Below the pieces are notes generated by a model. The model worked only from the letters and a program-made list of their open reading frames with translations. It made no database searches and was not told where the DNA came from. Shown in pieces: positions 1-507 of a stretch of DNA of 6,054 bases; position 1 is the stretch's first letter, and each line of letters opens with the position of its first letter. The stretch lies in IMG/VR virus record IMGVR_UViG_2537561509_000007, one strand, 5' to 3'. Position numbers and translations under genes: made by a program. The DNA is from a virus. Its lineage: Duplodnaviria; Heunggongvirae; Uroviricota; Caudoviricetes.

Positions 1-281
1 CTGCGCATACGGGCCACCAGCAGAGGCGGCATTGCCTTTTCGATCGCCGGTAACAGAGCCTGCATTTTTTCAACTGCATCAGGGGTGTCTTTCTCTATCC
101 AGCGGAAAATTTTCTGGGTATTGCGAGCCAGGGCTTCCGGATGGCTGTCGTCGTACAGTTCAGGAAACGTCATACCCAACTCAAAATAAGCCTGGGTTAT
201 TCCAGCTGCCGGAACTTTTTCGCCATCAGGACGCGCCCAGGCATTCATCGCCATGCGGATGTGTTCATGCTTGATTTTCAT
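1..281 (-). CDS. YdaT-like protein in the CII position, N-terminal 93 codons only; the gene continues past the window start
   Basis: Hand translation of the minus strand from ATG at 281..279 is open to position 1 (MKIKHEHIRMAMNAWARPDGEKVPAAGITQAYFELGMTFPELYDDSHPEALARNTQKIFRWIEKDTPDAVEKMQALLPAIEKAMPPLLVARMR...). A strong SD (AAGGGGGGA) precedes the ATG. The start overlaps the 3' end of the upstream cro-like gene by 17 nt. The MKIKHEHI N-terminus resembles my recollection of Rac YdaT; this is not verified. Confidence 0.6.
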   Translation of the reverse strand, partial: MKIKHEHIRMAMNAWARPDGEKVPAAGITQAYFELGMTFPELYDDSHPEALARNTQKIFRWIEKDTPDAVEKMQALLPAIEKAMPPLLVARMR

Positions 282-507
282 GAATCCCCCCTTGGTTAGA
301 AGGCGGATTATGATCAGAATCGGGAATGACAACCGTCGGTATGTGTAACTCATATTTGAGCGCCCCGGCAGTGACTGCCTGAATTAGCAACGCCCATTTC
401 CACGGAACGTCTTCCCCCCACATGCTGACTGTGGTTTTTGACGTTCCTAGAGCGGCGGCTGTTTTAACAACTCCGCCAAAATAGCCTAATACTTCTGATT
501 TTTTCAT
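265..507 (-). CDS. Cro/DicC/YdaS-family HTH regulator, 80 aa
   Basis: Sits inside the 265..555 ORF. I place the start at ATG 507..505 (MKKSEVLGYFGG...) because GGAG lies 6 nt upstream; the longer MVLIIKLL... extension has no SD. The pattern VLGYFGG-VKTAAALG-S-TVS-W resembles the Cro-like DicC/YdaS family. It is divergent from the repressor gene. Confidence 0.75.
   Translation of the reverse strand: MKKSEVLGYFGGVVKTAAALGTSKTTVSMWGEDVPWKWALLIQAVTAGALKYELHIPTVVIPDSDHNPPSNQGGIHENQA

Follow-up and report, generated by a model that had tools for sequence, protein, structure and literature searches.

A ydaT gene in the CII position behind a P22-type cro gene in the immunity region of a defective lambdoid prophage of Escherichia coli O157:H7

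Prophage setting and gene content

The stretch of DNA analysed here (6,054 nt, referred to as the window) matches chromosomes of Shiga-toxin-producing E. coli, among them O157:H7 and O121 strains, with 100% identity. A defective lambdoid prophage of E. coli O157:H7 has its immunity region in the first part of the window (1..1351). The gene order is that of a repressor gene and a divergent cro gene, the latter followed by ydaT, a DnaT-like gene in the O position and the gene for replication protein P. Two phage records, vB_EcoS-640R1 and vB_EcoS-813R8, contain the same module with 96% identity and annotate its three regulatory genes as cI, DicC and cII. To the right of the repressor gene, a DUF1391 gene, the DicF RNA, dicB, a DUF1482 gene, a truncated recE, an integrase remnant and a dinI-like gene are located. 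The following features were assigned in this part of the window:

1682-2332, plus strand: open reading frame of 216 aa between DUF1391 and DicF, a hypothetical protein in RefSeq
2333-2554, minus strand: open reading frame of 73 aa between DUF1391 and DicF, a hypothetical protein in RefSeq
2881-2932, plus strand: DicF small RNA (Rfam RF00039, 75 bits; gathering score 48)
3107-3295: dicB (Pfam DicB, 125 bits), with DicF about 170 nt upstream
3573-5350, plus strand: recE and integrase remnants; an open reading frame of 414 aa has only the N-terminal Exonuc_VIII (RecE) part, followed by unrelated sequence

The open reading frame of the truncated recE reaches the C-terminal integrase remnant (4799-5350), and both are pseudogenes in RefSeq. 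IS256 and IS66 elements come next in the genome. With recE and int truncated and IS elements flanking the region, the prophage has a decayed left arm. Considered as a whole, the DNA represents the immunity and early-left part of a decayed lambdoid prophage. The 216-aa and 73-aa open reading frames gave no match in a Pfam search.

The overlapping cro and ydaT genes

The leftward operon of the immunity region opens with two genes, which had been described in an earlier note on this DNA as a Cro-like and a YdaT-like gene overlapping by 17 nt:

265..507, minus strand: gene in the cro position, encoding a helix-turn-helix (HTH) protein of the P22 Cro family; 80 aa, ATG at 507, stop codon TGA at 267..265; RefSeq WP_000747948.1
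1..281, minus strand: 5' two-thirds of ydaT, encoding a CII-equivalent regulator; ATG at 281, open to base 1; RefSeq WP_000693878.1
265..281, minus strand: overlap of cro and ydaT, 17 nt; the final six Cro codons (IHENQA) and the stop codon lie within the conserved 5' end of ydaT

The overlap was confirmed by the minus-strand translation, which reads MKKSEVLGYF...GGIHENQA for the Cro-like protein and MKIKHEHIRMAMNAW...LLVARMR for the 93 codons of ydaT inside the window. RefSeq annotates both coding sequences in the identical O157:H7 sequence, also with a 17-nt overlap (8856..9281 and 9265..9507). In strain TR01, the products are named "Cro/CI family transcriptional regulator" (WP_000747948.1) and "toxin YdaT family protein" (WP_000693878.1, 141 aa). 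Neither cro nor ydaT is a chance open reading frame, since both exceed curated Pfam cut-offs. The incomplete state of ydaT is caused by the edge of the window, while the gene itself is not truncated. The full downstream gene, retrieved from the genome copy as the earlier note had proposed, encodes 141 aa and is 87% identical to YdaT of prophage CP-933P. The window ends at residue 93, before the tetramerisation helix, and the visible residues 1-93 contain the POU-like HTH DNA-binding domain.

Among 80 related loci, the junction of the two genes is a 17-nt overlap in 56, a 4-nt overlap (ATGA) in 21 and a 3-nt gap in the remaining three. The 17-nt overlap is present also in Rac-like loci (727..743 in one of them) and in Klebsiella loci. 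In the 80 loci, a tail of IHENQA and a stop codon is common to Cro-position proteins of different Pfam families that are otherwise unrelated, and the TGA ending these Cro genes is formed by the His-Glu codons of MKIKHEH in ydaT. The 17-nt overlap is generic, since unrelated cro genes read through the conserved 5' end of ydaT. It is a by-product of this conserved 5' end and no sign of a toxin-antitoxin pair. The overlap probably permits coupled translation of cro and ydaT.

Family assignment of the Cro-like protein and of YdaT

The Cro-like protein scored 57.7 bits against the Pfam family P22_Cro (PF14549, cut-off 30.2), which bears out its earlier description as Cro-like; it also matched the P22 Cro structure 1rzs (E 3e-8 over residues 1-53) and PHROG 409 (E 2e-28). 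By its Pfam score and its place as the first gene of the PR operon it belongs to the P22 Cro family. Compared to P22 Cro (PDB 1RZS, PF14549), with which it aligns over residues 1-53, the protein has a C-terminal extension of 27 residues, of which the final six codons are imposed by the ydaT overlap. In the profile search for the YdaS family (PF15943, YdaS_toxin), which the earlier note had proposed for the first gene, the protein reached 14.6 bits and stayed below the cut-off of 30. Other partner proteins of YdaT do exceed this cut-off (e.g. 103.9 bits). The designation of the two genes as a YdaS/YdaT-type pair therefore holds by position and function only and does not extend to the YdaS family. 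An identity of the protein with DicC, suggested by the name used in the phage records and by the earlier note alike, was rejected (NCBIfam NF007282, 31.2 bits, cut-off 130).

The assignment of the second gene was upheld in the same searches. The YdaT fragment scored 36.7 bits against Pfam YdaT_toxin (PF06254, cut-off 21), with only profile positions 1-44 of 92 inside the window, and matched PHROG 163 "CII-like transcriptional activator" (E 4e-40) as well as, without gaps, the PDB entries 8bt1 (YdaT of CP-933P) and 3c4r (E about 1e-55). With CP-933P YdaT (8BT1), the identity amounts to about 93% for the 93 residues inside the window and to 87% for the full 141 aa. The recognition helix ALARNTQKIFRW, with R53, R60 and W61, whose functional role is described in the CP-933P structure paper (PMC9986795), is identical in both proteins. 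The residues of the tetramerisation core listed for the CP-933P structure (PMC9986795), namely I103, L110, V111, V114, F117, V118 and A121, are all identical in the full genome copy. PF06254 is carried by all 120 listed YdaT homologues.

The position of ydaT, after the gene in the cro position, before the replication genes and divergent from the repressor gene, is that of a cII gene. In the Pfam search of the YdaT fragment (E up to 1), PF06254 was the sole match, and the family of lambda CII was not among the results. YdaT is a functional analogue of lambda CII only (PMC9986795, PMC11879457). The earlier note had set a CII-type activator against YdaT as alternative identities of the partial protein. 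This opposition is a false choice, since the protein matches YdaT and PHROG 163 labels the YdaT family as CII-like.

The YdaT-box at the start of ydaT

One further element was found at the junction of the two genes:

271..288, read on the minus strand: YdaT-box variant GGGATTCATGAAAATCAA, spanning the ATG of ydaT; 10 of 12 specified positions of TTGATT-N6-AATCAA

The box was compared to the published consensus and to 80 IMG/VR loci encoding close YdaT relatives, plus the locus L002. In CP-933P, the box TTGATT-N6-AATCAA has been footprinted as the primary site at the end of ydaS (PMC9986795), and the Rac YdaT-box ATGATTCATGAAAATCAA lies across the ydaT start codon (PMC11879457). An inverted repeat of the form (T/A)TGATT-N6-AATCAA is accordingly present at the cro/ydaT junction of the window across the ATG, with 10 of the 12 positions retained, and it is the sole match to the box in the window when up to two mismatches are allowed. 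The left half-site is GGGATT here versus TTGATT in CP-933P, so that its two outer positions are each G where CP-933P has T.

The 16-nt core of the box, GATTCATGAAAATCAA, shows no variation among the 80 related loci, although their upstream cro genes are unrelated, whereas the first wobble base directly adjoining the box is variable. The outer two bases of the box are TT, AT, GT or GG. The GG form occurs in 12 of the 80 loci and is combined with three different Cro genes. Distant homologues (Klebsiella, Actinobacillus and Rac-like phages) retain a box-like repeat at the ATG of ydaT. A GG box could be bound more weakly; a tolerated change is known only at position 1 (A in Rac).

The intergenic region between the repressor gene and cro contains no additional Rac-like YdaT site with up to two mismatches. 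The CI/Cro operators in this region hold an AATCAA half-site only, which was not counted as evidence of a YdaT site.

Mosaic distribution of ydaT and of its partners

Of 5,426 complete E. coli genomes, 3,063 contain the 5' half of ydaT (window 1-290); the copy number per genome reaches seven and is five in O157:H7 TR01. The module of cro and repressor gene (window 290-1240) is present in 1,058 of the 5,426 genomes, with a median of one copy and at most two places per genome, and more than 1000 complete genomes retain it with at least 95% identity. With ydaT in up to seven copies per genome and the cro-repressor module in at most two places, the pair does not behave as a self-contained, co-evolving cassette.

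The partners of near-identical ydaT genes in the cro position belong to at least four Pfam families (YdaS_toxin, P22_Cro, HTH_3 and HTH_17). The repressors encoded beside close YdaT relatives are of about 10 unrelated types, and the divergent repressors include three kinds with HTH and S24 domains, a RacR-like protein of 158 aa and several short HTH repressors. One group of YdaT proteins (cluster P0016, 99.3% identical to CP-933P YdaT) is encoded not in CP-933P itself but in a different mosaic with a P22_Cro protein and a 238-aa S24 repressor. The mosaic junction lies directly upstream of the YdaT-box (loci L003-L082). It follows from this arrangement that ydaT is a mobile module of lambdoid mosaics, with the junction just upstream of the box. 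The earlier statement that the pair is attached to a different repressor type is correct insofar as a protein with HTH and S24 domains differs from RacR, but the combination is an ordinary one, with S24-type CI-like repressors in about 21 of 76 loci.

These data bear on the possibility, raised in the earlier note, that the two genes form a type II toxin-antitoxin module with YdaT as toxin and the Cro/YdaS-like protein as antitoxin. Such a function is highly improbable. It is suggested by the names of the Pfam families ("YdaT_toxin", "YdaS_toxin") and of the RefSeq product ("toxin YdaT family protein"), but YdaT binds DNA as a tetramer and its operator has been mapped (PMC9986795). The two genes are small and overlap, as expected for such a module, yet the partners of ydaT come from at least four HTH families, which argues against a co-evolving interface, and the repressor gene lies on one side of the pair and the replication genes on the other. 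In Rac, toxicity results when ydaS/ydaT are de-repressed or expressed; the toxicity of Rac YdaT is explained by transcriptional activation of the host gene rcsA (PMC11879457). The 87%-identical YdaT of CP-933P, in contrast, is non-toxic, and its authors conclude that YdaS-YdaT is no toxin-antitoxin module (PMC8630535). The same view is taken by Jobling (PMC5917428) and, as cited in PMC9986795 and PMC5917428, by Christensen-Dalsgaard 2010. The question has been settled against a toxin-antitoxin pair in PMC5917428, PMC8630535, PMC9986795 and PMC11879457.

It is scarcely credible that the pair is an inert remnant of a defective prophage, in which the degenerate GG box is no longer bound and the two genes are without a current regulatory role. 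While recE and int are truncated and flanked by IS elements, the open reading frames of cro, ydaT and the 212-aa repressor are intact, and the high identity of the cro-repressor module in over 1000 complete genomes as well as its presence in the records of phages vB_EcoS-640R1 and vB_EcoS-813R8 speak against an inert remnant. The box differs by two mismatches from the CP-933P consensus, but its GG form is shared by the 12 loci with three different Cro genes mentioned above. Moreover, the cryptic prophage CP-933P still has a working bistable switch (PMC8630535).

Operators, promoters and the divergent repressor

The spacer between cro and the repressor gene is 91 bp long and holds the PR-like promoter and three operator sites. 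The control elements and the repressor gene are arranged as follows:

464..493, plus strand: candidate reverse promoter (PRE- or PracR4-like), TTAACA-18-AATACT, inside cro and directed towards the repressor gene; a consensus match only
536..565, minus strand: PR-like promoter of the cro-ydaT operon, TTGACT-18-TAAACT
537..598, no strand: tripartite OR-like operator, 16-nt sites 23 bp apart
537-552, no strand: operator site GTTTAATAATCAAAAC, strong copy of the 16-nt quasi-palindrome
560-575, no strand: middle operator site, weaker (11/16), identified by eye
583-598, no strand: operator site GTTTTAAAATCAAAAC, strong copy, at a spacing of 46 bp from 537-552
599..1237, plus strand: CI-like repressor with N-terminal HTH and C-terminal S24 autopeptidase domain, 212 aa, divergent
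1305..1351, plus strand: OL/PL-like element, in which a fourth operator copy (1305-1320) adjoins TTGACC-17-TAAACT, a promoter read by eye

The operator motif gave four matches, compared to 0.55 expected by chance, and the three sites in the spacer between cro and the repressor gene represent the classical OR arrangement. A functional repressor would probably keep the operon silent.

The repressor matched Peptidase_S24 (48.5 bits), HTH_3 and PHROG 4 (E 5e-40 over residues 2-211). The full-length open reading frame is kept in eight loci. RefSeq (NZ_CP033605.1) annotates only the S24 part (899-1237) as "LexA family protein", while the whole open reading frame of 212 aa is intact. The ATG of the repressor gene at 599 is without a Shine-Dalgarno sequence, and a -10 element (TAAAAT, 587-592) ends 7 nt upstream of it. 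Judged from these elements, the repressor mRNA is probably leaderless. The mRNAs of lambda cI and of paaR2 of CP-933P are also leaderless.

The candidate reverse promoter (464..493) matches 9 of 12 consensus positions, with two such sites found in 700 nt versus 0.9 expected, and is located 176 bp from the box. Its geometry resembles that of Rac, where box and promoter are about 190 bp apart, and as a pattern match it may represent the corresponding promoter. The position of the YdaT-dependent promoter in this prophage is uncertain, because the start in CP-933P lies within the box, whereas the Rac promoter is about 190 bp away. A terminator-like hairpin on the plus strand (418..434) occurs at chance frequency and was disregarded.

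Role of YdaT in the switch

The locus very probably functions as a standard lysis/lysogeny switch of the CI/Cro/CII type with YdaT in the role of CII. The identities, families and layout of the genes, the existence of the box, the repeated operators and the mosaic pattern of distribution were observed here, while the binding and activation ascribed to this allele follow from its homologues. The PR-like promoter (565..536, minus strand) would drive transcription of cro, then of ydaT and then of the O-like and P replication genes, while the repressor and Cro would compete for the three 16-nt operators at 537..598. From the homologues in CP-933P (87% identity) and Rac (about 31%) we infer that YdaT forms a tetramer of POU-like HTH domains joined by a C-terminal four-helix bundle and that it binds the inverted repeat GGGATTCATGAAAATCAA across its own start codon. 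Bound to the box, YdaT would activate a weak reverse promoter, from which transcription would read back through cro into the repressor gene. Transcription from this promoter would favour the establishment or maintenance of repression.

Several studies of related prophages are in line with this role. YdaS and YdaT have been argued from their context to be equivalents of Cro and CII by Jobling (PMC5917428). PaaR2, YdaS and YdaT of CP-933P act like CI, Cro and CII, and CP-933P YdaT switches on the otherwise silent promoter PRE933P at the ydaS/ydaT junction (Jurenas 2021, PMC8630535). The structure of CP-933P YdaT shows a POU-like HTH domain and a tetramer formed by a four-helix bundle (Prolic-Kalinsek 2023, PMC9986795). 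In Rac, the YdaT-box is required for a 29-fold activation of a reverse promoter located about 190 bp away in ydaS, and activation of this promoter raises the expression of racR (Wons 2025, PMC11879457). The YdaT proteins of Rac and CP-933P show cross-reaction, each with the box of the other (PMC11879457).

Alternatively, YdaT might act mainly as a repressor or autoregulator, whose occupancy of the box blocks PR-derived transcription or its own translation without activating repressor synthesis. This is improbable, even though the box covers the ATG and the Shine-Dalgarno region of ydaT: binding to the box in Rac left a ydaT reporter little changed, whereas expression of racR rose steeply (PMC11879457). 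With more CP-933P YdaT present, protection extends over about 95 nt around its site (PMC9986795), and YdaT is termed a "repressor" in the Acta D paper; however, the same protein raised the activity of PRE933P (PMC8630535). Rac YdaT binds additionally to the racR-ydaS intergenic region over the ydaS promoter (PMC11879457), but the corresponding region of the window is without a box-like site at up to two mismatches. Autorepression by YdaT is possible as a side effect.

Comparison with CP-933P, Rac and lambda

Among known systems, the closest to this YdaT protein is YdaT of CP-933P (PDB 8BT1; PMC8630535, PMC9986795), with 87% identity over 141 residues and an identical recognition helix and tetramer core. 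In both prophages, ydaT is located after cro and before the replication genes and carries the same box core at the start of the gene. The two YdaT proteins carry different residues at 18 positions; K27G and K30Q in helix alpha2 are among these substitutions. The partners in CP-933P are a YdaS-like Cro, the repressor PaaR2 and the toxin-antitoxin pair paaA2-parE2. The partners here, in contrast, are a P22-type Cro and a CI-like repressor with HTH and S24 domains, and toxin-antitoxin genes are absent.

YdaS and YdaT of the Rac prophage of E. coli K-12 (PMC11879457; Krishnamurthi 2017; Bindal 2017) are likewise a pair in the cro and cII positions with a box (ATGATTCATGAAAATCAA) across the ATG of ydaT. 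In Rac, a reverse promoter inside the gene in the cro position activates the repressor gene, and 464..493 is the candidate counterpart in the window. Rac YdaT shares only about 31% identity with CP-933P YdaT and is toxic through activation of rcsA (PMC11879457). Furthermore, Rac YdaS is a member of PF15943 and RacR lacks an S24 domain, whereas the Cro protein here does not belong to PF15943 and the repressor here has an S24 domain.

The likeness to Cro, CII and PRE of lambda consists in gene order and logic: the gene directly behind cro encodes an activator, which binds where cro and cII meet and induces antisense transcription that extends into cI. The site recognised by lambda CII consists of direct TTGC repeats on either side of the -35 element. 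In contrast, YdaT has a POU-like fold and recognises an inverted repeat (PMC9986795).

Significance for co-resident prophages and for annotation

Prophages that reside in the same cell and have different CI/Cro immunity share nearly the same YdaT and box. YdaT produced by one phage, on induction or infection, could therefore turn on the synthesis of repressor in every other YdaT-type prophage of that cell. This idea is tentative and rather unlikely to apply; it was considered because ydaT is present in multiple copies and the cro-repressor module is near single-copy, and because YdaT proteins of Rac and CP-933P with only 30% identity cross-activate each other's boxes. If true, YdaT would serve as a cross-prophage signal to stay lysogenic, and the box variants TT, AT, GT and GG would tune how strongly each prophage listens. 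Through near-identical copies of YdaT and its box, different prophages of Shiga-toxin-producing E. coli could in this way become linked in their lysogeny decisions.

The cro/ydaT pair as such is already known. It is annotated in thousands of genomes, and the structure and DNA site of a close YdaT are published. The locus is a textbook lambdoid immunity region, and for its CII equivalent a crystal structure and a footprint are available from a sister prophage that resides in the same strain. Caution is needed with the historical names "toxin YdaT" and "toxin YdaS" used by Pfam and RefSeq, as they invite a toxin-antitoxin interpretation that has been rejected in the literature. In NCBI/nr records, YdaT proteins (clusters P0003-P0120) are often named "Rha family transcriptional regulator", which does not fit their Pfam content of PF06254 only.
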